From contig CAZSMG010000002.1 in NCBI GenBank assembly GCA_964608075.1, positions 5,154 through 69,153 of the forward strand: a stretch of DNA of 64,000 nt, in the 5' to 3' direction. Both the position numbers and the translations under genes were made by a program. Under the pieces are notes generated by a model, which was not told the DNA's origin, made no database searches, and was given only the letters and a program-made list of their open reading frames with translations. Positions 36,847 through 63,032 of this stretch are shown here, piece by piece. Numbering within the stretch: the first letter of the stretch is position 1; each line of letters opens with the position of its first letter. Source of the stretch: an uncultured Clostridium sp. (lineage in GTDB: Bacteria; Bacillota; Clostridia; TANB77; CAG-508).

Positions 36847-37002
36847 TTACCTAGAGGTATTTTCGCAAGTCTGATTTCCTACGGTACAAGAAGTTTTGCA
36901 TGCACTCTGACAAGAAGTTTGGCACTCGCCACATCCGCCTTTATGCAAGGTATTATTCATTGTACTTGTAGTCAATGTTTTAATATGCTTTATTTCTTTC
37001 AT
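36847..37002 (-). CDS. scfA: SCIFF (six-Cys-in-forty-five) ribosomal peptide precursor, not present in the ORF track
   Basis: Minus-strand translation gives MKEIKHIKTLTTSTMNNTLHKGGCGECQTSCQSACKTSCTVGNQTCENTSR. It has an AAAGGAG RBS, a terminator immediately downstream, and the six-Cys C-x2-C-x3-C-x3-C-x3-C-x6-C pattern characteristic of SCIFF. Confidence 0.8.
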   Translation of the reverse strand: MKEIKHIKTLTTSTMNNTLHKGGCGECQTSCQSACKTSCTVGNQTCENTSR

Positions 37003-37100
37003 GTTCTGTGCTCCTTTCATATACAAAAGGGTCTACAAGCTACTACATAATGGTAACATTATGACTACAATATGATATAACTTTTAAATTGAATTGTCAA

Positions 37101-39355: not shown

Positions 39356-39496
39356 TTATTCCTCTATTTTTTTAAACATATCTTTTCCAACTCCACATAA
39401 TGGACATACCCAATCATCTGGTAGGTCTTCAAATCTTACACTTTCTGCTTCATCATCATAAATATAACCACAAGCAATACATTCATATTTTGCCAT
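39356..39496 (-). CDS. Rubredoxin (46 aa), not present in the ORF track
   Basis: Minus-strand translation gives [46 protein letters not shown]. It has the CxxCG...CPxCG motifs and an AAGGAGG RBS. It lies immediately downstream of the flavodiiron gene. Confidence 0.85.
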
Positions 39497-39512
39497 AATA
39501 TCACCTCCTTAT

Positions 39513-40685
39513 TTATTTTTGTAATATTTCGTCTGCTAATATTTCAAGTTCTTTAGTAGTGTCTTTTTTCATTCTTGATTTTATTGTAACCATTTTATCA
39601 CAAATTGTTATATCTTTCATATTATTTAAGATTTCAAGAATACATTTTCCTGCAGTAGGTGCCCAAGTTCCATTTTCAATTATTCCAACTCTACGATTTT
39701 GATAGTTTTTACTTTTTAAATGGTTTAAAAATTGTTCCATAGGTGGAAAAACTTCAGCATTATAACTTGATGCTGCTAATATTAATTTATCATATCTAAA
39801 GGCATCTTCTATAGATTCTGCCATATCGTTTCTTGATAAATCTGCTATAGATACTTTTCTTACACCTTTTTGTTTTAAAATTTTAGCAAATTCTTTAGCA
39901 GCTTCTGCAGTATTTCCATGTATAGATGCGTATGCTATAAATACCCCATCATCTTCCGGTTTATAGCTACTCCAAATATCATATTTATTAATATAATGAT
40001 TTAGGTTTTCTTTAAGTATTGGCCCATGAAGCGGACATATAATTTTAATATCTAAATTTGATGCTTTTTTTAAAACATTTTGTACTTGAATGCCATATTT
40101 TCCGACTATATTAAAATAATACCTACGAGCTTCACAATCCCAGTCTTCATCAGTATCTAGACAGCCAAATTTACCAAATGCATCAGCTGAAAATAGTACT
40201 TTTTCACTTTCTTCGTATGTGAACATTACCTCAGGCCAATGTACCATTGGTGCCATAATAAATGTAAGAGTATGTTTACCAATGTTTAGAGTATCTCCTT
40301 CATTTACAACTACTTTTCTGTCTTCTAAATTTGTGATATCAAAAAATTGAGGCATATATGTAAATGTTTTTGAATTTCCTACAATTTTCATGTTTGGATA
40401 TTTATTTGCAATTAATTCTATGTTATAAGCATGGTCTGGTTCCATATGTGATACTACTAAATAATCTGGCTTCTCGCCTGCAAGTTCCCTTTCTAAATTT
40501 TCTAACCATTCTTTAGTTGCTCTTTTATCAATAGTATCCATTATAACATTTTTTTCATCTTTTATCAGATATGAGTTATATGATATCCCATTTGGTACAA
40601 TATATTGACTTTCAAAAAGGTCAATTGTTTTGTCATCAGCTCCTATATATTTTATTGAATCAGAAATGATTATATTACTTTTCAT
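39513..40685 (-). CDS. Flavodiiron protein (FprA-type O2/NO reductase)
   Basis: N-terminal MBL-like di-iron domain (HMEPDHAYN). C-terminal flavodoxin-like domain (FIAYASIHGNTAEAAKEF). Confidence 0.85.
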   Translation of the reverse strand: MKSNIIISDSIKYIGADDKTIDLFESQYIVPNGISYNSYLIKDEKNVIMDTIDKRATKEWLENLERELAGEKPDYLVVSHMEPDHAYNIELIANKYPNMKIVGNSKTFTYMPQFFDITNLEDRKVVVNEGDTLNIGKHTLTFIMAPMVHWPEVMFTYEESEKVLFSADAFGKFGCLDTDEDWDCEARRYYFNIVGKYGIQVQNVLKKASNLDIKIICPLHGPILKENLNHYINKYDIWSSYKPEDDGVFIAYASIHGNTAEAAKEFAKILKQKGVRKVSIADLSRNDMAESIEDAFRYDKLILAASSYNAEVFPPMEQFLNHLKSKNYQNRRVGIIENGTWAPTAGKCILEILNNMKDITICDKMVTIKSRMKKDTTKELEILADEILQK

Positions 40686-40809
40686 ATATTTTCTCCTTTT
40701 TACTTAGAATTTATTTGCTTAAAAAGTAAAAATTCTATTAGAGTTTTCCACAATTTGTAACTCTTTTGTGAATTATTACTTTTATTTTTTAGTGTTTTTG
40801 AAACTTAAA

Positions 40810-40941
40810 TTAGTCTTTTTTAGGGTCTTTTTTTTCTTTATTAGTTTCTATTTCAAATCCATAGCCATCTAATAATTTATTTACTGATTTCATAATGTCA
40901 TCTATATTTTCATCATAATCATCTTTTACTAAATTAAACAT
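40810..40941 (-). CDS. Small acidic hypothetical protein (43 aa), not in the ORF track
   Basis: MFNLVKDDYDENIDDIMKSVNKLLDGYGFEIETNKEKKDPKKD, with a GGAGG RBS 6 nt upstream. Confidence 0.35.
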   Translation of the reverse strand: MFNLVKDDYDENIDDIMKSVNKLLDGYGFEIETNKEKKDPKKD

Positions 40942-40984
40942 ACATAACCTCCATTTATAGTAAAAGAGAAACTTTTTGTTTCCC

Positions 40985-41539
40985 TTATTTATTTTCTTCT
41001 TTATTAAATTTATTCAAAATTGTTCCAACTACATGTACAATTGCAGTTGAATTTTTATTTGCTATTTCTTTTCCAGCGGCTTTGCCACTTATTGTAATTG
41101 AAGCAACTAATGCGCTTGCAAATATTTGAACATTTGAATCTAATCCAAAGCTTTCAGATATTTTTATAGCTATCATGGCACTTAATGCACCACTTAATAC
41201 TCCACATATATCCCCAATTACATCTGCACATATATTAGCAACTTTAGCTGAGTTTTTAATAAGCTTTAATGATTTTTTAGATCCTTCAACTTTTTTTGTT
41301 GCCTTTGCATGGAATTCATCTTCATTTGCAACTGTTACTGCTACACCTATTATATCAAATATGATACCTAATACAATTACTAGAAGTAAAATTAGTATTG
41401 CTCCTATTATTGATAATTTAGATACTACATTTGAAGATATAAATGAAAAAAATAAAGATAGTGTAAAAGCAATAAAAAATACTTGTATACACCATTTTTT
41501 ATTAGAATCTTTATTTTTCGAGTCTGCATTATCTTTCAT
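40985..41539 (-). CDS. Small four-TM membrane protein (184 aa), possibly OapA-like
   Basis: Four hydrophobic helices, about 20 kDa. Directly downstream of, and co-directional with, the about 700-nt ORF-free structured region. Confidence 0.5.
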   Translation of the reverse strand: MKDNADSKNKDSNKKWCIQVFFIAFTLSLFFSFISSNVVSKLSIIGAILILLLVIVLGIIFDIIGVAVTVANEDEFHAKATKKVEGSKKSLKLIKNSAKVANICADVIGDICGVLSGALSAMIAIKISESFGLDSNVQIFASALVASITISGKAAGKEIANKNSTAIVHVVGTILNKFNKEENK

Positions 41540-41569
41540 GTGTTTATTTATTCTCCTTAAAATTATATA

Positions 41570-42290
41570 ATGTTTTAGATGGTAAAGTCTAAGTAAATTT
41601 TACGGTTTAGGTCTAGTCGAATTTCTCTATTTTCCACTTGGCATTACTGCCATAGCCGTTTCCGTTTAAAGAAAATATCTACTATGTATAAAAGCAGACA
41701 CCAGATCGCCACTCAAATCCGTACCTTAATCCTTAGACTTTTATGCTTCTATCGAAGCAAACACTCTAGAAGTTTTCCTTGATATACTTTTAATTATTAT
41801 TAGTTTCTTTTGCAAATGTAATTTCATACCTGAAAACAAATAATAATTGGCCTAATTAATATTTGTTCAGTTGGAGGTAATCCCAGTACATTCACTCAAA
41901 ACAGGCTACACTATGCTTTGTGTCTTGGCACTTAGCATAGGTTATACTTAAAAAAATATTTAAGCCTCCGCGAAATCAGGGGGTTATATGTATGCCATTA
42001 CATACTACCCTAATTTCTTTACTCCCTGAAAGCACGCAAAACTGGCATCTCGCGCACAAACAAGAAACTTCAACGATGTGCCCTTTAGTGGATTTTTAGC
42101 CCCACCCTCATAATAATTAGTATAACTAGAATAATGCACCATCGATATTATTATACCAAATTTTGTTAAATTTTCAAATATTTAATCAAACATGATTAGG
42201 TTGTTTTTACTTATATTATTTTGAAATTCAAACATTTTTCTGATTTTATAATAATATCTAATTTATTCTTTATTTTTCTTCCATTTTCTT
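41570..42290 (-). ncRNA. Candidate large structured non-coding RNA (OLE-like?), strand inferred from the downstream gene
   Basis: About 720 nt contain no ORF of 60 aa or more in any frame. G+C is visibly higher than in the flanks. Many local inversely complementary segments are present (e.g. atgtatgccattacat, gcctccgcgaaatcagggggttat). The region lies between two co-directional minus-strand genes. Confidence 0.3.
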
Positions 42291-42294
42291 CTAT

Positions 42295-42870
42295 TTAGAA
42301 ACCGATAAAATTTCTTAAGGCATCTTTTGTTTTTTCTATATCTCCATCGTTTGCAATTTCCAGTACATTTATATTTGGATATTTTTCTTGTATTTCTTTA
42401 GACATTTCTAAATATACTCTTTGTTGTTTTATACTATTTTCTGCCTTAAATTTGGCATATTCAGGAACAGCCTTTCCTTCTCTTTGTAGCCTTTTGTTAT
42501 ATAAATCTTCATCTTTTAGATATAAAGTTATGTAATATATGTCAAAGTCTAATTTACTAAAACTATCTAATAATTTTTCATAGACTTTAGTAAATGAATA
42601 TTCTTTTAATCCTAATCTGCAGTAATTTTCTTCTGTAAAAAATGTTCTATCAAATAATAGGTTTATACTTGTATTTTCGAGCTTTTGTAAATAGTCTAAT
42701 AAATCTATATACATTTTTTCAGCCTTTTTTAAACCTTCTGGAGAACTATCTGAGGTTCCACTTAATCTATATAAGTTTGTGTATTTTAAACTATGTCTTA
42801 AGAAATCTGTTATTGTTGTTTTTCCTGCTCCTTGTGCTCCTTCTACTACTATTAATCTTGAATTTGCCAT
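42295..42870 (-). CDS. P-loop nucleoside/nucleotide kinase-like protein (dNK/Tmk-like fold)
   Basis: Walker A VVEGAQGAGKTT and a LID-like basic region. 191 aa. Confidence 0.6.
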   Translation of the reverse strand: MANSRLIVVEGAQGAGKTTITDFLRHSLKYTNLYRLSGTSDSSPEGLKKAEKMYIDLLDYLQKLENTSINLLFDRTFFTEENYCRLGLKEYSFTKVYEKLLDSFSKLDFDIYYITLYLKDEDLYNKRLQREGKAVPEYAKFKAENSIKQQRVYLEMSKEIQEKYPNINVLEIANDGDIEKTKDALRNFIGF

Positions 42871-42968
42871 AATTAATCCCCCTATCTTTAAACGTATTAT
42901 ATATTTTTTAATAGCTTCTGTAAAGATATTTTTTTAGTTATATTTTTACAGATTTTCCATATAATATA

Positions 42969-42997
42969 GATAAGGTATTGACATTACAAAAAAAAAG
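42969..42997 (+). promoter_or_regulatory. Sigma-A promoter of the initiator tRNA gene
   Basis: TTGACA, a 17-nt spacer, then TATAAT. Confidence 0.6.
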
Positions 42998-43023
42998 AGT
43001 TATAATGACCAAGTACTAAATAT

Positions 43024-43099
43024 CGCGGGGTGGAGCAGTTGGCAGCTCGTCGGGCTCATAACCCGAAGGTCGATAGTTCGAGTCTATCCCCCGCAACCA
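43024..43099 (+). tRNA. Initiator tRNA-fMet (anticodon CAT)
   Basis: C1 is opposite A72 (cgcgggg...ccccgcA). Three consecutive G-C pairs in the anticodon stem (tcggg-ctCATaa-cccga). Encoded CCA. Confidence 0.85.
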
Positions 43100-43110
43100 A
43101 GAATTTTATT

Positions 43111-43145
43111 AGAGTCGCAAGAGATTGTGGACTCTTATTTTTTTG
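43111..43145 (+). terminator. Rho-independent terminator after tRNA-fMet
   Basis: Hairpin agagtc-gcaagagattgtg-gactct followed by TTATTTTTTT. Confidence 0.7.
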
Positions 43146-43171
43146 ACCTTAAGCGTAATTTTGGCGTAAGT

Positions 43172-43189
43172 GGGGACAATTTGGGGACA
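43172..43189 (+). repeat. Arm-type repeat GGGGACAATTTGGGGACA, left copy
   Basis: Matches 59696-59713 (GGGGACAAATTGGGGACA) in the same orientation. Confidence 0.6.
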
Positions 43190-43293
43190 GTCCCTACATT
43201 TTTATGCATTAAATAGCATATTTTAGCCTAACTAATTTATATTAAACTTTGAAAATCAAAAAAGTAATTTTCGAGAAATTTTGAAAAGAGTTT

Positions 43294-44481
43294 TTATACG
43301 AGCATCTCCTCTAAAACATTACCAGCTTCTTTATTATGAGCTTCAACTGGATGTACATAGAAGTTTAAGGTAGTAGTTATTTGAGCATGCCCTAATCTTG
43401 ATGCTACAACAGCTACATCTACATTTTTAGATATAAGCAAAGTAGCATTTGTGTGTCGCAAACCATGAAAAGTAATTTTTGGTAAGTTGTTCTTTTCAAT
43501 AAAAGAACGAAACCAATCTGTAACTGTATCAGGATGCATTGGATTACCATTCCAAGTAACAAATAGCCTGTTTGAGTCATTCCATAAATCGCCAAATCTT
43601 TCTTTTTCAGCATCATACCAAGTTTTGTACTTATTAAGCATATTTATAACAATATCCGGAATTCCGACTTTTCTTATTGAACTATGTGTTTTTGGATCTT
43701 TTACGAAAATGCCTTTTTCAGATGTGTATTGACTTGCCTTAGTAATATTAACAAAACCTTCTTTAAAATCAATATCTGACCATTCTAAGCCTAATACTTC
43801 GCCTCTACGCATACCAGTAAACAATGTTAATATAACAATAGTTTGAAATTTGATTTCTTCATTTTCTAATGCTTCTAATAATTGTTTACATTGAATATCA
43901 TCGTAGTATTTAATTTGAGGTCTTTGGTGTTTAGGTGGCTTAACTCTGTCAGCTGGATTAAAGGGAAGTATTTGCCAATATACTGCGTTTTGTAGCATTG
44001 CATGTAGTAAACGATGATGCTCTAGTATTGTTTTAGAAGATAGACTCTTCATTACAGTCTTTCCATTATGATTTTTACATCTTTTTAATTGATGATCTTT
44101 TGAAAGATCATCGTAAAAATTCATAATGTGCGGTGGCTTGATATCGCATAACTTATAATGCCCAAAGTATGGAAGAATTCGAGATTCTAGCATTCCTTTA
44201 TATCTTTCATAAGTTTTTGGCGATAATTCCTTTTTGCCATAATTTTTAGCCCATAAATCTGTAAATTCTTTAAATGTCATTGAAGAGTTTTGCAAAACGA
44301 TACCATTTTCAACTTCATAAACAAAGTTCACAAGTTCTTTATCTGCTTCACGCCTACTATTTGCTTTGATGCTCTTAGTATATTTGATTCTGTTACCATA
44401 GCTGTCAAAACCATGTGATACAATTAATCTCCATGAGCGTTTGCCTCTCTTTTCAAGATACCCTGCCATTACTTTTTTCAC
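43294..44481 (-). CDS. int: Tyrosine-type site-specific integrase
   Basis: C-terminal catalytic region GLRHTNATLLI...LGHAQITTTLNFYVH (R, H-x-x-R, Y). N-terminal SAM-like domain. Adjacent to the tRNA. Confidence 0.9.
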   Translation of the reverse strand: MKKVMAGYLEKRGKRSWRLIVSHGFDSYGNRIKYTKSIKANSRREADKELVNFVYEVENGIVLQNSSMTFKEFTDLWAKNYGKKELSPKTYERYKGMLESRILPYFGHYKLCDIKPPHIMNFYDDLSKDHQLKRCKNHNGKTVMKSLSSKTILEHHRLLHAMLQNAVYWQILPFNPADRVKPPKHQRPQIKYYDDIQCKQLLEALENEEIKFQTIVILTLFTGMRRGEVLGLEWSDIDFKEGFVNITKASQYTSEKGIFVKDPKTHSSIRKVGIPDIVINMLNKYKTWYDAEKERFGDLWNDSNRLFVTWNGNPMHPDTVTDWFRSFIEKNNLPKITFHGLRHTNATLLISKNVDVAVVASRLGHAQITTTLNFYVHPVEAHNKEAGNVLEEMLV

Positions 44482-49354: not shown

Positions 49355-50356
49355 ATGATAGAATTAGGAGAGATATATAATCAAAAGTTGAAAAATAAAA
49401 AATTTATAGATTTATTTTGTGGACTTGGTGGATTTAGATTGGCCTTAGAATCTTATGGCGCAAAATGTGTATTTAGTTCAGACATAGACAAACATGTAAG
49501 TAAGACATATGAAAATAATTTCGGAGATTATCCATTAAGTGACATAACAAAAGTTGATGAGAAAGATATTCCTAAACATGATATTTTATGTGCGGGTTTT
49601 CCATGTCAAGCATTTAGTATATCTGGAAAGCAAAAAGGATTCGAAGATACCAGAGGGACTCTATTTAGAGAAGTTGTGAGAATTGCTAGTTATCATCAAC
49701 CAGAATTATTATTATTAGAAAATGTAAAGAATTTAGAAAAACATGATAGTGGAAGAACTTTTAAAGTAATAAAGGAAAATATAGAAAACATCGGATATAA
49801 TATGTATTCAAAGGTTATAAATGCTTCTAGATATGGTATTCCTCAATCAAGAGAAAGAATTTACATGGTATGCATTAGAAAAGACTTAGATAATAATAAT
49901 TATAAGTTCCCTCTGCCTGTAAATAAAGAAAGATGTGTTAATGACATACTACTTAATAACGGGGAAGAAAAACAATATATCATTAACAAACCATATAAAT
50001 TAAAAGAGAGAAATCAGCAAATAAAAATGTTTAAAGTTTATGACAAGCCAGTAAGAATTGGAACTGTAAATAAAGGTGGACAAGGCGATAGAATATATGA
50101 TCCAATGGGACAAGCAATAACATTGTCGGCAGAAGGTGGAGGAACTGGTTCTAAAACGGGATTATATTACATAAATAACGAGGTTAGAAAACTACATCCT
50201 AGGGAATGTGCAAGATTGATGGGATATCCAGAAAATTATATTATTGATGAATCAGTTAATCAAGCACAAAAACAATTCGGCAACAGTGTAGTTGTAGATG
50301 TTTTGCAATATGTAATAAAAAGTATCATAGATGAGGGGAGTATAAAAAATGGATAG
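49355..50356 (+). CDS. DNA (cytosine-5)-methyltransferase, M.HhaI-like
   Basis: Motif I FCGLGGF, motif IV GFPCQAFS, motif VI LLENV, and the C-terminal RKLHPRECARLMGYP...QFGNSVV. Extensive collinearity with M.HhaI as recalled from memory, including the TRD segment GKGGQG-RIY...ITLSA-GGG. Confidence 0.9.
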   Translation: MIELGEIYNQKLKNKKFIDLFCGLGGFRLALESYGAKCVFSSDIDKHVSKTYENNFGDYPLSDITKVDEKDIPKHDILCAGFPCQAFSISGKQKGFEDTRGTLFREVVRIASYHQPELLLLENVKNLEKHDSGRTFKVIKENIENIGYNMYSKVINASRYGIPQSRERIYMVCIRKDLDNNNYKFPLPVNKERCVNDILLNNGEEKQYIINKPYKLKERNQQIKMFKVYDKPVRIGTVNKGGQGDRIYDPMGQAITLSAEGGGTGSKTGLYYINNEVRKLHPRECARLMGYPENYIIDESVNQAQKQFGNSVVVDVLQYVIKSIIDEGSIKNG

Positions 50357-55091: not shown

Positions 55092-57440
55092 ATGAATATT
55101 GTAGAAAATGGAGTAAAAGTAGATTTTCACATACATTCTATTGCATCTAAACATAAAGAAGAGTCAGGAAAAGTTGAAAATTCGACAATTGATAAATTGG
55201 ATATATTAATAAAAAATCTAAATGATAGACAAATCAATATGTGTTCAATTTCTGATCATGATAATTTTGATATAAATATTTATAAAGCTTTAAAGAAACA
55301 AGAAAACAAAGGATCTATAAAGAAAGTTTTACCAGCAGTAGAATTTTCAGTAAAGTATGATTCAAAAGTAATACATATTATTACAATTTTTGAAGATAAT
55401 GATGACAATAAATTGGAGAATATTAACAAACTTATATTTGATAATAAGAAAAATATTCCATTATATGACCAAGAAATGTCATTTTCAGAAGAAAAATTTT
55501 TAGAGATATTAAAGAAAATAGATTTAAATGTTGTTATGATTGCACATCAAAAAGAAAGTTTAACAAGTAATAAAATAAGAAACAATGATGTTATGTCTTT
55601 AGGAAAAGAAAAATTTAATGAATTAGTATTTATAGATTATTTTGAATCTTTTGAATTCAAAAACAAAAGAAATGAAATATTTAATAAATATTATATAGAA
55701 AATAATCAAGAAAATTTAAATAGTGAAGATTTAAGATTTATTACTGGAAGTGATTGTCATAAATGGAGTGAGTATCCATTAGAAGATGAAAAATTCTCTT
55801 TTACTTATTTAAAATGTTTGCCAACATTTAGAGGATTGGCAATGGCAATTACAAATACTAAAAGAATAAAATTAGTAAATAGCTTTTTTTCAAATAGTGA
55901 TAATAAAGTTGATAGTATAAAGATTTCGATTAATGGTAAGGAAAAAAATATTCCTTTATCAAGAGGAATAAATGCGATCATAGGAGATAATTCAATAGGA
56001 AAATCATTATTACTTCATAAAATAACTAATTATGAATACTTAAAAGATTCAAAAATAGAAAAGAAGTATGAAGAGTATTTAAACAAAAATAATATTCAAC
56101 TTGAAACATCTATTTCACAAGATAAAATATATAGAGTTGATAAACAGGGTGCAGTAAGGGAAATGTTTGAAAAAAAGACTTTTAATGTAAATGGATTTTT
56201 AAATGAATATTTTCCTCCTGTACCAAATGTTGAAAAATATAAAACTAAGGTAAAGGATGAAATACATAGATATATACAAGATATAAAGGATAATTATGAT
56301 TATAGAGAAAATAAAAAGAAAATATCTAGTTTTTATATAAAATATTTTGAAGAAAATGCAAAATCATTAAATCTTCAAAAAACTAGAAAGAATTTTAAAG
56401 CTAAAATCCAAAAACTAAATAATATTATAGCTGAGTTTGAAGATATTAATTTGAAGCTAGATAAACTAATTAAAAATAAAGATGTTTTTGAAGATGATGT
56501 TAAATTATTGGAAGAACAGAAGAATATTTATTATAAATTGATAGATAAATATAATCAAGAAATTGAAAGGTGGAAATTTGAAAATAGTAAGATTAAGATT
56601 GTAAATGATTGCTTAGGAAAATTGGCACAGAAGTTACAGAAATCTAAAACTGATAATACAAAGGCAATAGAAAATTACGAAAACACATTAGAGACATTCG
56701 AAGATAATATCGTAAATTTATATTTGCAATCAAAAAAAGAAAGAATCTATTCTGCGAATATAAAGAAGGAAATAATTCCTATAGAATATAATAATGTTGG
56801 TACATATAGATTTATTAATAAATGTGATGTTGAAGAAGTATCAAATGAGTATATTATAAAAAGTATTCAAAAGGTATTAGGCAAAAAAATTAAAGATATA
56901 AATACTTTAACAGAAGATAATATTTCAGAGAAGCTAGAAGGAGAAGACTTTTACGAAAAATTAGATAATTTAGAGAAAGAAATATACAAAAAGATTGAAT
57001 CAGACTTTAAATACAAGCCAATAATAAATAACTTAGAGGATAAAGATATTACTAAAGAATTGTCAGCTGGATTTAATTCAAAGATATATTTTGATATATT
57101 ATCCGAACAAAGTCAAAAAGATGGTATATATATAATAGATCAACCAGAAGATGATGTATCACAAAAGTCAATTAAAGAGTATTTGTTAGAAGATTTTTAT
57201 AATATGAGTCAAAATAGACAAATTATCTTAGTAACGCATAACCCTCAATTTATTGTAAATTTAGATGTTGATAATGTCATTTATCTAGGAAAGAATGAGG
57301 ATAATGAAATTATAGTACAAAGTGGAGCATTGGAGTATTTTAATGAAGAATATGATATGTTAAAAATTGTGGCAGATAATATAGATGGAGGAATTAGTTC
57401 TATTAATGAAAGGTGGAAAAGATATGAAAAAAATATATAA
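55092..57440 (+). CDS. PHP-domain phosphoesterase fused to an ABC-type (OLD/Rad50-like) ATPase with a coiled-coil insert
   Basis: N-terminal PHP motifs DFHIHSIAS and SISDHDN. Walker A GDNSIGKS. A long coiled-coil segment of about 300 aa. Signature-like LSAGFN, Walker B IYIIDQPEDD, H-loop ILVTHNPQF. Confidence 0.8.
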   Translation: MNIVENGVKVDFHIHSIASKHKEESGKVENSTIDKLDILIKNLNDRQINMCSISDHDNFDINIYKALKKQENKGSIKKVLPAVEFSVKYDSKVIHIITIFEDNDDNKLENINKLIFDNKKNIPLYDQEMSFSEEKFLEILKKIDLNVVMIAHQKESLTSNKIRNNDVMSLGKEKFNELVFIDYFESFEFKNKRNEIFNKYYIENNQENLNSEDLRFITGSDCHKWSEYPLEDEKFSFTYLKCLPTFRGLAMAITNTKRIKLVNSFFSNSDNKVDSIKISINGKEKNIPLSRGINAIIGDNSIGKSLLLHKITNYEYLKDSKIEKKYEEYLNKNNIQLETSISQDKIYRVDKQGAVREMFEKKTFNVNGFLNEYFPPVPNVEKYKTKVKDEIHRYIQDIKDNYDYRENKKKISSFYIKYFEENAKSLNLQKTRKNFKAKIQKLNNIIAEFEDINLKLDKLIKNKDVFEDDVKLLEEQKNIYYKLIDKYNQEIERWKFENSKIKIVNDCLGKLAQKLQKSKTDNTKAIENYENTLETFEDNIVNLYLQSKKERIYSANIKKEIIPIEYNNVGTYRFINKCDVEEVSNEYIIKSIQKVLGKKIKDINTLTEDNISEKLEGEDFYEKLDNLEKEIYKKIESDFKYKPIINNLEDKDITKELSAGFNSKIYFDILSEQSQKDGIYIIDQPEDDVSQKSIKEYLLEDFYNMSQNRQIILVTHNPQFIVNLDVDNVIYLGKNEDNEIIVQSGALEYFNEEYDMLKIVADNIDGGISSINERWKRYEKNI

Positions 57441-60101: not shown

Positions 60102-63032
60102 ATGAACGAAAAGGAATTAATATACGAAGGAATTGAAACTGCGTTTATTAACTATAATAATCAATCGAATGTAGCATATAAACCACAATTTATATCAAAT
60201 GATTATAAAGAAGGAAGAAAGGTAATATCAACTCTAGAAGACGAACTATTAAAATGTGATAAATTTGATATTAGTGTAGCATTTATAACAGATGGAGGAA
60301 TTGCACCATTATTACAAACATTAAAATTACTAGAAAGCAAAAATATTAAAGGAAGAATTCTAACAACTGATTATTTAGGTTTTAATGATCCTAAAGCATT
60401 AAAAAAATTAACTCAATTCAAAAATATAGAATTAAAAATGTATATGACAGAAAGTTCTGGAGAAGGATTCCATACGAAAGGATATATGTTTAAAAACAAA
60501 GATATATACAGAATAATTATTGGAAGCTCTAATATGACTCAAAAAGCATTATCTGTTAATAGAGAATGGAATACTAAAATTGTATCAACAGAACAAGGAG
60601 AGTATGCGAAAGAAATTCTTAGTGAATTTGAAGGATTATGGGAATCAAAGTATACCTTAGCGTATGAAGATTTTATTGAAAAATATGAATTAAAATATAA
60701 AATAATAAAAGAACAAAGAAGAATTGCGAGCTCTAAGGCAATACCAACTATTAAAGAATATAAATTACAGCCTAATGCTATGCAAGTAAGTTTTATAAAT
60801 AATTTAAATAAAATAGTGGAAATGGGAGAAAATAAAGCTTTATTAATTTCAGCTACTGGTACTGGAAAAACATATGCTTCAGCTTTTGCGTTAAGAGATG
60901 CAAAACCAAGAAGAGCACTATTTTTAGTACATAGAGAGCAAATTGCAAAACAAGCGATTGAAAGTTACAAGAAAATATTTGGAAAAACAAAAACTTTTGG
61001 ATTGCTTTCTGGAAATTCTAAAGATTTTAAAACAGATTATTTATTTTCTACAATGCAAATGATGAGTAAAGAGGAGATATATACTAAATTTAAAAAGGAT
61101 GAATTTGATATAATTGTTATAGATGAAGCACATCGAGTAGGCGCTAGTAGTTATCAAAAACTTATACAATATTTTAAGCCAAAGTTATTATTAGGAATGA
61201 CTGCATCACCTGAAAGGACGGATGGATATGATGTGTATAAAGAATTTAACTATAATATAGCATATGAAATTAGATTGGAACAAGCATTAGAAGAAAATTT
61301 TCTATGCCCTTTTCATTACTTTGGAATAACTGACCTAGAATTTGAAGGGGAAACGATAAATGAAGAAACAAAATTAAGGGACTTCGCAAAATTAACAAGT
61401 GATGAAAGAGTTAAATATATAATAGAGCAAATAGAATTTTATGGACATTCTGGTACAAACATAAATGGACTCGTTTTCTGTAGCTCTAAAAAAGAAGCTC
61501 AGATACTAAGTAATAAATTTAATGAAAAAGGATATTTCACAGTAGCACTTACTGGAGAAGATTCACAAGAAAAGAGAGAAGAAGCAATTAATAGATTAAC
61601 TTCTAAAAATATTGAAGAAAAGATAGATTATATTTTTACAGTAGATATTTTTAACGAGGGTGTTGATATACCAGAAATTAATCAAATAATAATGTTAAGG
61701 CCAACAGAATCTCCAATTGTATTTGTACAACAATTAGGAAGAGGGTTAAGAAAAGCATCAGACAAAGAATATGTAGTTATACTTGATTTTATAGGAAATT
61801 ATAAAAATAACTTTATGATTCCAATAGCATTATCAGGAGACCGCAGTTATAATAAAGATAATATACGTAGGTATGTGTTAGAAGGAGATAGAGTTATTCC
61901 AGGATCTTCAACGATTCATTTTGATGAAATATCTAAAAAAAGAATATTTGAAGCGATTGATAGCGCTGATTTTACTGATATAAAATTAATTAAAGAAAAT
62001 TATACTAATTTAAAAAATAAATTAGGGCATATTCCGTCATTGTTAGATTTTGATAAATATGGTGAAATGGATGTATTAAAAATTTTTGATAATAAGAGTT
62101 TAGGCTCGTATTATAAGTTTTTAACAAAATATGAAAAAGATTATAAAGTTAGATTATTAGAGAATGAAGAAAAAGTTATTGAATTTATATCTAAAAAGTT
62201 AGCAAGTGGAAAAAGAATACATGAATTAGAATTATTAAAAATTATGATTACAGAAGATGTTCAATTATTTACAAAACTTAGGGATAAACTTTCAAAGATA
62301 TATAATATAAATATTACAGAACAAGAAGAAAGAAGCGTTATAAATATATTGACTAATAATTTTGCTTCGGGTTCAAGTAAAAATACATATAAAGAATGTG
62401 TTTTTATTGAAGAAAAAAATAATAATGATTATAGTAAAACAGAATCATTTAAAAATATGTTAAATAATCAAGAATTTAAGAAGATCTTTGAAGAACTAAT
62501 TGAATTTGGAATTAGTAGATATAATCAAAATTATAGTAAAAAATATCAAGATACTCAGTTAGTAATATATCAAAAATATACATATGAAGATGTATGTAGA
62601 CTATTAAATTGGAGAAATAACGAAGTTCCACTTAATATAGGTGGATATAAATTTGATAAAGATACAAAAACATTTCCTGTTTTTATTAACTATGATAAAA
62701 ATGATGAAATTAATGATAGTATAAAATACGAAGATCACTTTGAAAGTAGTAATAAATTAATAGCTATCTCCAAAAGTGGAAGAAATATAAATTCAGAAGA
62801 TGTACAAAATCTTATTAATGCAAAAGATAGGGGAATAAAAGTTGAATTATTTGTTAGGAAAAATAAAGATGATAAAATCTCAAAAGAATTTTACTATTTA
62901 GGTAGAATGAATGCTACAGGAAAAGTTAGAGAATTTATTATGCCTAATACAAATAAAACAGCAGTAGAGATAGAGTGGATATTAGAAGCGCCTGTAAGAG
63001 AAGATATATATGAATATATAATAGATTGTTAA
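60102..63032 (+). CDS. SauUSI-like Type IV (modification-dependent) restriction enzyme: PLD-family nuclease, SF2 helicase/ATPase and a C-terminal specificity domain
   Basis: N-terminal HKD motif (HTKGYMFKNKD...GSSNMT). Helicase motifs I (ISATGTGKT), II (VIDEAHRV) and III (TASPER). A C-terminal domain of about 250 aa. 976 aa. Confidence 0.75.
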   Translation: MNEKELIYEGIETAFINYNNQSNVAYKPQFISNDYKEGRKVISTLEDELLKCDKFDISVAFITDGGIAPLLQTLKLLESKNIKGRILTTDYLGFNDPKALKKLTQFKNIELKMYMTESSGEGFHTKGYMFKNKDIYRIIIGSSNMTQKALSVNREWNTKIVSTEQGEYAKEILSEFEGLWESKYTLAYEDFIEKYELKYKIIKEQRRIASSKAIPTIKEYKLQPNAMQVSFINNLNKIVEMGENKALLISATGTGKTYASAFALRDAKPRRALFLVHREQIAKQAIESYKKIFGKTKTFGLLSGNSKDFKTDYLFSTMQMMSKEEIYTKFKKDEFDIIVIDEAHRVGASSYQKLIQYFKPKLLLGMTASPERTDGYDVYKEFNYNIAYEIRLEQALEENFLCPFHYFGITDLEFEGETINEETKLRDFAKLTSDERVKYIIEQIEFYGHSGTNINGLVFCSSKKEAQILSNKFNEKGYFTVALTGEDSQEKREEAINRLTSKNIEEKIDYIFTVDIFNEGVDIPEINQIIMLRPTESPIVFVQQLGRGLRKASDKEYVVILDFIGNYKNNFMIPIALSGDRSYNKDNIRRYVLEGDRVIPGSSTIHFDEISKKRIFEAIDSADFTDIKLIKENYTNLKNKLGHIPSLLDFDKYGEMDVLKIFDNKSLGSYYKFLTKYEKDYKVRLLENEEKVIEFISKKLASGKRIHELELLKIMITEDVQLFTKLRDKLSKIYNINITEQEERSVINILTNNFASGSSKNTYKECVFIEEKNNNDYSKTESFKNMLNNQEFKKIFEELIEFGISRYNQNYSKKYQDTQLVIYQKYTYEDVCRLLNWRNNEVPLNIGGYKFDKDTKTFPVFINYDKNDEINDSIKYEDHFESSNKLIAISKSGRNINSEDVQNLINAKDRGIKVELFVRKNKDDKISKEFYYLGRMNATGKVREFIMPNTNKTAVEIEWILEAPVREDIYEYIIDC

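Follow-up and report, generated by a model that had tools for sequence, protein, structure and literature searches.

The ole–oapA locus

On the minus strand of the 64-kb stretch of DNA analysed here (the window), a gene for a 191-aa kinase-like protein is separated by a gap of 755 nt (41540-42294) from a gene for a 184-aa membrane protein, which is followed by a gene for a small acidic protein (Table 1). The gap contains no ORF of at least 60 aa in any frame of the ORF list, and there are stops in every frame. Just two ORFs touch it: one of 45 aa on the minus strand (42142..42005) and, by its final 31 nt, an antisense one of 131 aa. Base composition also sets the gap apart. G+C content is 30.6% over the whole gap and 34.4% over the 596 nt that match Rfam, compared with a mean of 24.9% for the window, and only 0.8% of 596-nt segments reach at least 34.2%, the remaining ones lying over tRNA genes. 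The preliminary description of this DNA, made from the letters alone, had noted about 720 nt free of ORFs of 60 aa or more, G+C above the local background and many complementary segments, and had suggested an OLE-like noncoding RNA. The first two observations are borne out by these values, and the other two by the folding and Rfam results that follow. The interval that it covered (40810-42290) also spans the 43-aa acidic protein gene, which it did not mention.

OLE is a membrane-associated bacterial noncoding RNA of roughly 570 nt. In a scan of the whole window with 4,227 Rfam families, each applied at its gathering score, OLE (RF01071; gathering score 50 bits) was the sole non-tRNA family matched, with a score of 366.6 bits (E 4.1e-104) over model positions 1-616 and no truncation. 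The window copy has the top score among 13 copies scored with Rfam, and 135 of its 146 modelled pairs (92%) are canonical or G-U. The predicted 567-nt transcript has a minimum free energy of -160.3 kcal/mol, versus -128.0 +/- 6.0 for shuffled sequences (z = -5.4; none of 100 shuffles equals it), and this fold recovers P1 and the same helices as the covariation model. We assign the ORF-free, G+C-richer stretch, from its sequence, to OLE RNA, a class that has already been described.

A different identity for the stretch, such as a degraded group II intron, a pseudogene or another large noncoding RNA class, could appeal to the absence of ORFs and to nothing further. The Rfam scan returns only OLE and tRNAs, and substitutions among relatives preserve pairs and are not codon-like. 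Models for the group II intron, GOLLD, ROOL, HEARO and others were rejected, none reaching its gathering score anywhere in the window. The other large noncoding RNA and the decayed intron that had been offered as alternatives at the outset therefore find no support, since neither has an Rfam match and the covariation is that of a structured RNA. We consider the chance that the stretch is something other than OLE to be negligible.

Table 1. Positions of the predicted features of the ole–oapA locus in window coordinates
Feature	Position	Strand	Details or basis
Kinase-like gene, 191 aa	42295..42870	-	P-loop nucleotide/nucleoside kinase-like; weak dTMP-kinase and dNK matches only
Predicted ole promoter	42150..42177	-	-35 TTGAAA 42177-42172; 16-nt spacer; extended -10 TGgTATAAT 42158-42150
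ole gene	41563..42158	-	RF01071 match
OLE conserved RNA core	~42143 to ~41577	-	5' GAUGGUGCA to ACCAUCU 3', ~567 nt; alignment with relatives
P1, long-range closing helix	41578..42143	-	GAUGGU 42143-42138 with ACCAUC 41583-41578
P2	41763..42132	-	AUUCUAG 42132-42126 with CUAGAGU 41769-41763; holds CUAG palindrome
P3.1 and P3, 14-bp bridge between domains 1 and 2	41783..42124	-	covarying pairs; 5' strand UAUAC 42124-42120 and AAUUAUUAU 42118-42110; 3' strand AUAAUAAUU 41800-41792 and GUAUA 41787-41783
P4 hairpin	42087..42106	-	A-rich loop CUAAAAAU; dimerisation centre 1
P5/P5.1 hairpin	42022..42067	-	Rfam alignment; loop UGCCA ~42046-42042, complementary to P6.1 loop
P6/P6.1 hairpin	41972..42017	-	loop AAUGGC(A) 41998-41993; carries UGGCA, kissing partner of P5.1
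P7 stub, 5-6 bp	41947..41964	-	CUUAA...UUAAG; model positions ~206-236 deleted
P8 hairpin, 30 nt	41911..41940	-	about consensus length; Rfam alignment
P9 three-part arm, 100 nt	41803..41902	-	full length; palindromic GGCC loop 41852-41849, dimerisation centre 4
P12-P15 region, domain 2	41584..41741	-	Rfam alignment
P13	41698-41678	-	AUAC loop 41689-41686 in place of GNRA; bulged U kept
P14/P14.1	41677-41628	-	invariant GUAA loop 41647-41644
Antisense ORF, 131 aa	41175..41570	+	last 31 nt overlap the 755-nt gap
oapA, 184 aa	40985..41539	-	ORF; RBS AAGGAG 41558-41553
Weak terminator-like hairpin	40964..40986	-	AAGGGAAAC-AAAAA-GUUUCUCUU, then UUACU; just past the oapA stop
Acidic small protein gene, 43 aa	40810..40941	-	MFNLVKDDYDENIDDIMKSVNKLL...; RBS GGAGG 40952-40948

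Architecture and covariation of the OLE RNA

We aligned the RNA with 58 relatives (MAFFT) and projected onto the alignment the paired structure taken from the window's own Rfam alignment. Across the 146 modelled pairs, pairing holds in 90.2% of the cells, and compensatory change is seen at 79 pairs, compared with 47.8 +/- 2.8 in shuffles and 19-43 in slid controls. These clade-wide compensatory changes therefore argue for ongoing selection on OLE structure. The long-range helices P1, P2 and P3/P3.1, which are absent from the Rfam model, are also backed by covariation or pairing in the 58 relatives. P1 and P2 are jointly 99.9% paired: P1 is paired in every sequence (100%), with compensatory changes at three of its six pairs, and P2 is 99-100% paired and nearly invariant. 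OapA binding has been mapped to palindromic sites that lie within P2 and P4a or close to them (PMC12265935). In P3/P3.1, all 14 pairs are compensatory and 90.7% of the cells are paired, versus 26-44% in the slid controls; P3 has been proposed to span the membrane (PMC12265935). The predicted architecture is a full one: domain 2 is closed by P1 and P2 and completed by P10-P15, and P3/P3.1 joins it to domain 1 (P4-P9).

Within domain 1, the four published dimerisation elements (the A-rich P4 loop, the P5.1 and P6.1 loops and the GGCC loop of P9) are all present in the sequence. A 14-nt stretch of P4, GGGGCUAAAAAUCC, is identical in 58 of 58 sequences and the P4 loop is likewise invariant; the role of this loop in the dimer comes from cryo-EM work summarised in PMC12265935. 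The P5/P5.1 helix comprises 20 pairs, 8 of them compensatory, and the P6/P6.1 helices are 95-99.7% paired. In the window the P5.1 and P6.1 loop motifs are perfectly complementary, and the common loop variants of the clade keep GCCA in the former and GGCA in the latter. The flanks of P5/P5.1 hold nucleotides that form a k-turn in other species. GGCC occurs in the P9 loop of all 48 aligned sequences that have the distal arm, the other 10 of the 58 being without distal P9. The outer helix of P8 is 99.3% paired, and its inner helix has four positions that are unpaired in most sequences. In domain 2, the P13 and P14 helices covary strongly and the P15 element, GAGAAAUUC, is invariant.

The OLE RNAs of C. 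acetobutylicum and C. botulinum are homodimers by cryo-EM (Kretsch et al. 2025, PMC12286853; Wang et al. 2025). Their four dimerisation elements and 14-bp P3/P3.1 are also present in the sequence of the window copy, whereas P7 is largely missing from it. Neither P7 nor P8 is a contact in the OLE dimer (PMC12265935).

OapA and the probable ole–oapA transcript

The gene downstream of ole begins with an ATG located 38 nt past the last conserved OLE nucleotide, with its RBS beginning ~20 nt past the same point. As the preliminary description had anticipated, its product is a co-directional, 184-aa, four-TM protein that resembles OapA, a small membrane protein of about 20 kDa for which four TM helices are predicted. 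The AF2 monomer, a low-confidence model (pLDDT 63, pTM 0.48) built from 18 aligned sequences, the homologs available being close ones (64% identity or more), contains four long helices (residues 12-41, 44-82, 88-130 and 135-162). A Kyte-Doolittle profile gives three strong hydrophobic segments, and a weaker fourth (residues ~137-156), computed by hand, reaches ~1.4 relative to a cut-off of 1.6. The protein has an ADVIGD sequence whose D106 and D110, unchanged across 18 homologs, form the DxxxD motif that is distinctive of OapA (PMC11332333). It also has a K-rich loop (residues 73-100) with 8 Lys, in which H77, K79, K82 and K83 are invariant; a cluster of positive charge in a loop has been described for OapA (PMC12265935). 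The H. halodurans OapA has both the DxxxD motif and the basic loop in common with the window protein.

OapA has been modelled as a CNNM-like dimer, and a sub-threshold resemblance to CNNM domains has been reported for it (PMC11332333). Consistent with this, the TM region of the window protein matches the domain of the MpfA/CorB/CNNM family (PF01595) with 20.4 bits (E 4e-4), under the cut-off of 28.4 bits, and 16 of the 18 OapA family members match at E <= 0.01 (best E 2e-5). OapA nevertheless differs from MpfA, CorB and CNNM proteins in having no CBS or CorC domains, in having four TM helices rather than three, and in its DxxxD motif, which is missing from CNNM domains. Single-sequence and profile searches of the PDB with the window protein gave chance-level TM matches only (ErbB2 TM, LolE), and a Foldseek search of the PDB with the low-confidence AF2 model gave no match with E <= 0.001. 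Of the 3,529 homologs in the protein database, not one has a curated name, and the closest relative is 79% identical in OapA. In 78 of the 78 related loci where this could be tested, an OLE lies directly upstream of the OapA homolog and has its orientation, and Rfam scoring of 12 sampled loci confirmed OLE in all 12. Together, the signatures in the sequence support the assignment of the 184-aa protein as OapA.

The predicted promoter upstream of ole is of the sigma-70 type with an extended -10 and is conserved in the clade. It matches the consensus at 11 of 12 positions, with TG before the -10, and its TATAAT is invariant or nearly so, at a fixed distance from the 5' end of the conserved core, in 58 of 58 aligned relatives. 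Transcription is predicted to start at about 42143. A terminator scan of 40500-43200 called no terminator-like sites, so there are none between ole and oapA, and the two genes are therefore most likely co-transcribed. The hairpin just past the oapA stop, also uncalled by the scan, folds with -8.8 kcal/mol (z = -1.7), and 11 of 200 shuffles fold equally well, weak evidence for a terminator. A candidate internal promoter for oapA (TAGACT-18-TATAAT, 41591..41562) was rejected, as its columns are not conserved across the clade.

This arrangement would also suit a structured region that serves solely as a long leader of the oapA mRNA and regulates it in cis, like a riboswitch or attenuator, instead of being the stable RNA of an RNP. 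There is no terminator or clear processing signal between ole and oapA, the oapA RBS follows the last conserved nucleotide closely, and no conserved promoter other than the one ahead of OLE was seen for oapA. However, ole and oapA are also co-transcribed in H. halodurans (PMC12265935), and elsewhere OLE RNAs are stable and abundant, form dimers seen by cryo-EM and have OapA, OapB and OapC as binding partners (PMC12265935). Moreover, an RNA of ~570 nt with ~25 helices and invariant loops for RNA-RNA dimerisation goes far beyond what a leader needs. We therefore regard a purely cis-acting leader as very improbable and favour an OLE RNA that is probably co-transcribed with oapA. The window locus resembles that of H. 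halodurans in its RNA family and two-domain architecture, in having oapA directly after the RNA, and probably in co-transcription.

A reduced OLE form and its gene neighbourhood

The window RNA differs from the OLE of H. halodurans, the model system with OapA, OapB and OapC, in the stub that replaces P7 and in the OapB site. The Rfam consensus P7 has ~17 bp, of which the window copy keeps a short remnant (Table 1); short P7 is the commonest state in the clade, a minority having longer inserts. Binding of OapB requires a GNRA tetraloop closing P13, together with a single-nucleotide bulge (PMC7936274). The P13 loop of the window copy is AUAC; in the clade as a whole its sequence varies, is rich in A and U and in most members does not fit GNRA. 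With P7 reduced to a stub and a P13 loop of this kind, the window RNA lacks the primary OapB docking site; of the features expected of a full-length OLE, it is the GNRA P13 loop and the consensus-length P7 that are missing. No KOW-type or L7Ae-type small ORFs are evident by eye in the ORF list of the 64-kb window.

These features fit variant 1 OLE, which has been described from TANB77, a group whose genomes for the most part have neither OapB nor OapC (Fernando & Breaker 2024, PMC11332333). Variant 1 RNAs score 310-390 bits with the authors' model, have shorter P7, P8 and P9, and often lack the P13 OapB site (PMC11332333). The window copy shares the uncultured low-G+C gut Clostridia host, the short P7, the loss of the P13 site and the retention of highly conserved nucleotides, and its score lies within the same range, although it was obtained with the Rfam model, a different covariance model. 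On the other hand, P8 and P9 in the window are of consensus length, unlike those described for variant 1, so the assignment suggested by the sequence is an imperfect one. The 80 related loci all come from Clostridia or Bacillota gut MAGs, and they include Ca. Merdicola faecigallinarum, which has been placed in TANB77 / CAG-508 (PMC13106387). The window itself encodes a flavodiiron protein, a rubredoxin and a SCIFF peptide, as fits an anaerobic or extremophilic Bacillota host; compared with the alkaliphile H. halodurans, this host would be a gut anaerobe with a reduced genome. We are highly confident that this is an ole–oapA locus and that it comes from an uncultured, low-G+C gut bacterium within the Clostridia, whose lineage is probably TANB77 / CAG-508. 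The RNA class, the variant and the clade association are all already known, and the window offers a clean, high-scoring example of the reduced TANB77 form rather than a new kind of element.

Could the losses instead be the early erosion of an OLE that no longer functions in a reduced genome? Such decay would agree with the stub in place of P7 and with a P13 loop that is not GNRA, and also with the reduced TANB77 genomes without OapB and OapC. Some relatives go further: several lack distal P9, one (L038) has the 3' domain only, and oapA is possibly frameshifted in three (L094, L097 and L098). Against this, the window copy has the best Rfam score of those compared and forms nearly all of its modelled pairs, the compensatory changes in the clade indicate continuing selection for structure, and the locus has kept its promoter, its dimerisation loops and an oapA that is intact, invariant motifs included. 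The reduced form is also common to many species, and it therefore represents a stable state and not random decay. A relic is thus highly improbable, and we read the window OLE as a natural minimal version of the RNA, in which P7 and the OapB docking loop are dispensable. The parts under clear selection are P1-P3, the four dimerisation loops, the invariant GNRA loop of P14.1 and the invariant P15 element. Their retention is consistent with the published view that OapA and the RNA dimer constitute the indispensable core.

OLE is among the largest and best-conserved bacterial noncoding RNAs. Recent cryo-EM work suggests that OLE may be a membrane-crossing RNA (PMC12265935). We infer the function of the window copy from work in other, distant species (PMC12265935, PMC7936274, PMC9723947). 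By analogy with Halalkalibacterium halodurans and two Clostridium species, the RNA would homodimerise and be bound by dimers of the four-helix, CNNM-like OapA. The resulting RNP would sit at the cell membrane, possibly crossing it through P3, and would help the cell to withstand stresses, among them cold, excess Mg2+, short-chain alcohols and poor carbon sources, perhaps through control of the divalent-cation transport that OapA would mediate.

The canonical OLE neighbourhood is reportedly, from the 2006 discovery paper, a cluster of isoprenoid, DNA-repair and NAD-kinase genes. This H. halodurans-type cluster is absent from the window, where ole–oapA is preceded by the kinase-like gene and followed by the peptide, flavodiiron protein and rubredoxin genes. 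A position of ole on an integrase island was rejected: a tRNA gene (43024-43096, plus strand) stands between ole and the integrase and the genes beyond it. The 191-aa kinase-like protein occurs directly upstream of OLE in 20 loci (67-85% identity), and in other loci a Tmk (PF02223) or Gmk-like (PF00625) gene occupies this position. We treat the kinase-like gene as a neighbour of ole, any membership in the RNP being hypothetical. In the literature covered, which does not include the survey of Breaker et al. 2023 (doi 10.1111/mmi.15129), we found no pairing of OLE RNA with thymidylate kinase, guanylate kinase or dGTPase.

The acidic peptide has no Pfam match. A single-sequence search with it gave only 2 matches because of the word prefilter, and a profile of 22 sequences places 839 protein-database clusters in the family. 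HMM matches to the peptide were found in 36 of the 80 loci and in the window, always on the OLE strand. The gene has a codon-position entropy of 0.46 / 0.18 / 0.91, and an SD-like motif is present in 40 of 40 copies. It is kept in the cluster with any of three kinase types (Tmk, the dNK-like 191-aa protein or Gmk-like), and among loci fetched through the peptide itself OLE is present in 17 of 18 that were testable. This conserved family of ~40-aa acidic peptides, which travels with kinase–ole–oapA across the clade, is possibly unreported.

One explanation for the linkage is that the peptide and the kinase are functional partners of the OLE–OapA particle in a clade reportedly without OapB and OapC; the peptide might, for example, anchor a (d)NMP kinase to the membrane RNP or regulate it there. 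We consider such a partnership unlikely. The plainer reading is that the peptide is an accessory or N-terminal module of the kinase and that synteny conserved in a single lineage accounts for its linkage to ole. The linked peptide and kinase genes nonetheless provide a cheap lead in the search for further OLE partners. The peptide is fused to Tmk in 4 loci, and in two loci (the window and L001) its gene has left its place upstream of the kinase for one downstream of oapA and is still in the cluster.

Identity and structure of the RNA

The preliminary description had noted an ORF-free stretch of raised G+C ahead of a co-directional gene for a small membrane protein with four helices, and had guessed at an OLE RNA with its partner OapA. 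The stretch is a 755-nt gap between two minus-strand genes (see table) and no ORF within it reaches 60 aa. Its core of 596 nt has a G+C content of 34.4%, against 24.9% for the whole window, a level reached by just 0.8% of equal-sized windows, the remaining ones of which cover tRNA genes. The predicted transcript folds 5.4 SD better than dinucleotide-preserving shuffles. A search of the whole window with the complete set of 4,227 Rfam families, each at its curated threshold, gave OLE (RF01071) as the sole non-tRNA match, untruncated over model positions 1-616; it scores 366.6 bits (E 4.1e-104), where the gathering score is 50. Canonical or G-U pairing is seen in 135 of the 146 modelled pairs for which both partners are present.

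We tested the structure on an alignment of 58 OLE RNAs drawn from 80 loci, which were fetched from reference genomes with the downstream protein (OapA) as query. With the Rfam-derived structure 90.2% of cells are paired and both sides have changed in 79 pairs, compared with 47.8 +/- 2.8 in shuffles and 19-43 when the structure is slid by 1-3 columns. The long-range helices described in the literature are absent from the Rfam model and were therefore located by hand. In the P3.1/P3 bridge, all 14 pairs show compensatory change and 90.7% pairing is found, versus 26-44% when slid. P1 is 100% paired with three covarying pairs, P2 is paired and essentially invariant, and the same helices are recovered in the minimum-free-energy fold of the window sequence alone. 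The Rfam scan and the pattern of pair-preserving substitutions exclude an intron, a pseudogene or another ncRNA as the content of the gap.

Stems are named after the H. halodurans numbering of PMC9723947 and PMC7936274 and the review PMC12265935. All four dimer-contact elements identified by cryo-EM (PMC12265935) are present as sequence in domain 1 (P4-P9). The P4 loop, CUAAAAAU, is invariant in the clade, the P5.1 loop UGCCA is complementary to the P6.1 loop UGGCA, and P9 has its full length and a palindromic GGCC loop. The P14.1 loop GUAA and the P15 element GAGAAAUUC are likewise invariant or nearly so. A decaying OLE relic is contradicted by the scores, the covariation and these invariant loops. 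The OLE RNA encoded here is intact in structure, and its helices, bridge and dimer loops are under purifying selection.

Features of the OLE locus and the adjoining probable island (window coordinates unless a related locus, L001 etc., is named)
Feature	Position	Strand	Remarks
191-aa gene	42870..42295	-	kinase-like, upstream of gap
ole promoter	42177..42150	-	TTGAAA, 16 nt, TGgTATAAT
OLE Rfam match	42158..41563	-
P1	42143-42138 with 41583-41578
P2	42132-42126 with 41769-41763
P3.1/P3	42124-42120 + 42118-42110 with 41800-41792 + 41787-41783		14 bp
oapA RBS	41558-41553	-	AAGGAG; ATG at 41539
184-aa gene (oapA)	41539..40985	-	downstream of gap
43-aa ORF	40941..40810	-
Further peptide copies	L001 6606-6734; L003 4630-4746; L027 331-1104; others
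tRNA gene	43024-43096	+	upstream of ole
Tyrosine integrase	44481..43294		after tRNA
Excisionase-like small ORF			island; judged by eye
Dcm cytosine methyltransferase	49355-50356		island
1,156-aa protein			island; without family match
TrlF-family AAA-like ATPase	55092-57440		island
Transposase-like ORF			island; judged by eye
976-aa helicase/restriction-like protein	60102-63032		island

Variant class

P7 is cut down from the consensus to a stub of 5-6 bp, the commonest state in the clade, and the P13 loop is AUAC, with the bulged U retained, rather than the GNRA tetraloop that OapB requires on P13 (PMC7936274). In the clade as a whole the loop varies in sequence, is rich in A and U and for the most part departs from GNRA. 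The P7 stub and the non-GNRA P13 correspond to features that Fernando & Breaker attribute to 'variant 1' OLE RNAs, commonest in the TANB77 clade, whose genomes largely lack OapB and OapC (PMC11332333). The 366.6 bits fall within their variant 1 bin of 310-390, albeit with a different model from theirs. The window RNA keeps P8 and P9 at consensus length, whereas variant 1 is described with P7, P8 and P9 all shortened, and so would stand at the less reduced end of the class; the distal P9 is lost in 10 of the 58 relatives. The P7 stub and the missing OapB site suggest a minimal particle that would work without OapB. The related loci are all from uncultured Clostridia of the gut; one belongs to Ca. 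Merdicola faecigallinarum, assigned to TANB77/CAG-508 by a phylogenomic study of 2026 (PMC13106387). The element belongs to a well-described RNA class, and its clade and the variant that it probably represents have been reported previously.

Two loci that the OapA query retrieved together with the variant 1-like copies, L064 (5297-5821, Clostridium sp. CAG:793) and L072 (5337-5880, an uncultured Clostridia MAG), have an OLE of only 248-258 bits with a P7/P8 region that fails to align, and resemble the published 'variant 2'. In L038 (5697-5853) only the OLE 3' domain is detectable (model positions 436-595, 100 bits), with unrelated sequence in place of the 5' two-thirds and an intact-looking oapA; the cause may be truncation of OLE or faulty assembly.

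OapA and transcription of the locus

Searches with the window RNA (nhmmer) placed OLE directly upstream of oapA on the same strand in 78 of the 80 loci; the contigs of the remaining two break off within 22 nt of oapA. Rfam confirmed OLE in 12 of 12 sampled loci. Of the 3,529 homologs that the database holds for the 184-aa product, not one bears a curated name, and sequence searches found no solved relative. It has four long helices and the DxxxD motif that defines OapA (PMC11332333), both Asp being invariant, and its family conserves a lysine-rich loop, the basic loop described for OapA (PMC12265935). A sub-threshold CNNM domain match occurs in 16 of 18 family members; the model used to check for a CNNM-like fold was of low confidence, and a fold search with it returned nothing at E <= 0.001. 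Judged by its sequence, the protein is an intact OapA carrying the features that define it in the literature, and the preliminary description was correct in both observation and interpretation. In three related loci, L094 (5839-6178), L097 and L098 (5882-6230), oapA aligns as two pieces that differ in reading frame, and gene calling yields only short products of 118-132 aa. These signs indicate frameshifts, which may be sequencing errors or mark genuine pseudogenes.

A near-consensus promoter lies at the start of the Rfam model. All 58 relatives have this -10 box, with little or no variation and always equally far from GAUGGUGCA, and its position would put the 5' end near 42143. Sequence conservation ends past ACCAUCU, about 41577, and no terminator-like site was found between there and oapA. 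Because the oapA RBS and ATG come next with no terminator between, ole and oapA are likely co-transcribed, as in H. halodurans (PMC12265935). Past the stop codon of oapA there is a weak hairpin. Another promoter-like site, TAGACT-18-TATAAT (41562-41591, minus strand), within the ole 3' end just upstream of oapA, has -10 columns that are unconserved in the clade and is therefore probably a chance match in AT-rich sequence.

The RNA is unlikely to be a purely cis-acting leader of oapA, since the known nature of the OLE class speaks against this. By analogy with other species, the OLE RNA would dimerise, bound by OapA dimers, and would be held at the membrane, possibly passing through it via P3/P3.1. 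The particle may help the cell adapt to cold, to alcohols, to excess Mg2+ and to poor carbon sources; a possible route is that it modulates the transport of cations by the CNNM-like OapA (PMC11332333, PMC12265935).

Gene neighbourhood, small peptide and probable island

In the clade the genes usually run from a divergent, minus-strand HD-domain dGTPase-like gene through a small peptide gene, a nucleotide kinase gene, ole and oapA to, commonly, genes for an SDR and a Y-family DNA polymerase, which amounts to a nucleotide-metabolism and DNA-repair setting. We take dltE to encode an SDR like that of the clade. This gene is among the ole-associated genes listed in PMC12265935. Directly upstream of ole, in the window (42295-42870, minus strand) and in L001-L100, there is nearly always a kinase of one of three families: Tmk (PF02223), the 191-aa dNK/Tmk-like type of the window, or Gmk-like (PF00625). 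The window retains kinase, ole and oapA, followed instead by the small peptide, a flavodiiron protein, rubredoxin, an MBL-fold hydrolase and a DUF4153 protein. The flavodiiron protein (390 aa; ODP/metallo-beta-lactamase and flavodoxin domains) and rubredoxin (46 aa), at 39356-40685 (minus strand) just downstream of the ole-oapA-peptide unit, are found at this position in none of the 80 related loci; we take the two together for a system that detoxifies O2/NO, such as anaerobes carry. A SCIFF six-cysteine ranthipeptide precursor lies at 36847-37026 (minus strand; NCBIfam TIGR03973, 83.4 bits versus a cut-off of 50).

The 43-aa ORF, inside the region delimited in the preliminary description, is by its family's coding signature (entropy 0.46, 0.18 and 0.91 at codon positions 1, 2 and 3) a real gene, and all 40 of 40 copies have an SD-like motif ahead of them. 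The family of acidic peptides of ~40 aa comprises at least 839 protein-database clusters, unnamed and nearly all of 37-49 aa, with the consensus MFNLVKDD[FY]DEN..DDI..S[IV]NK[ML]L and a K/E-rich tail; it has no Pfam match. The peptide occurs in 36 of the 80 oapA-seeded loci, on the OLE strand every time, and in 34 of these directly upstream of a kinase gene of whichever family; the window and L001, its closest relative, are alone in having it downstream of oapA. Four loci carry it as an N-terminal fusion with Tmk, which points to a functional tie with the kinase. Among peptide-seeded loci a kinase adjoins the peptide in 20 of 20 places and OLE follows the kinase in 17 of 18 testable ones. The exception, metagenomic contig L093 (4001-7709), has the peptide and Tmk and then an 893-aa WD40/RCC1-repeat protein in place of ole-oapA, while its sister contig L094, with an identical peptide, has the usual OLE; L093 could reflect strain-level replacement or chimeric assembly. 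In the literature covered, which did not extend to the main gene-association survey, no paper linked the peptide or kinase with OLE, and we regard the peptide-kinase linkage as a minor lead.

Beyond the tRNA gene, the mobile-element and defence-like genes of 43024-63032 are probably an integrated island bounded by the integrase. The ole-oapA unit is outside it, with ole on the chromosomal side of the tRNA.
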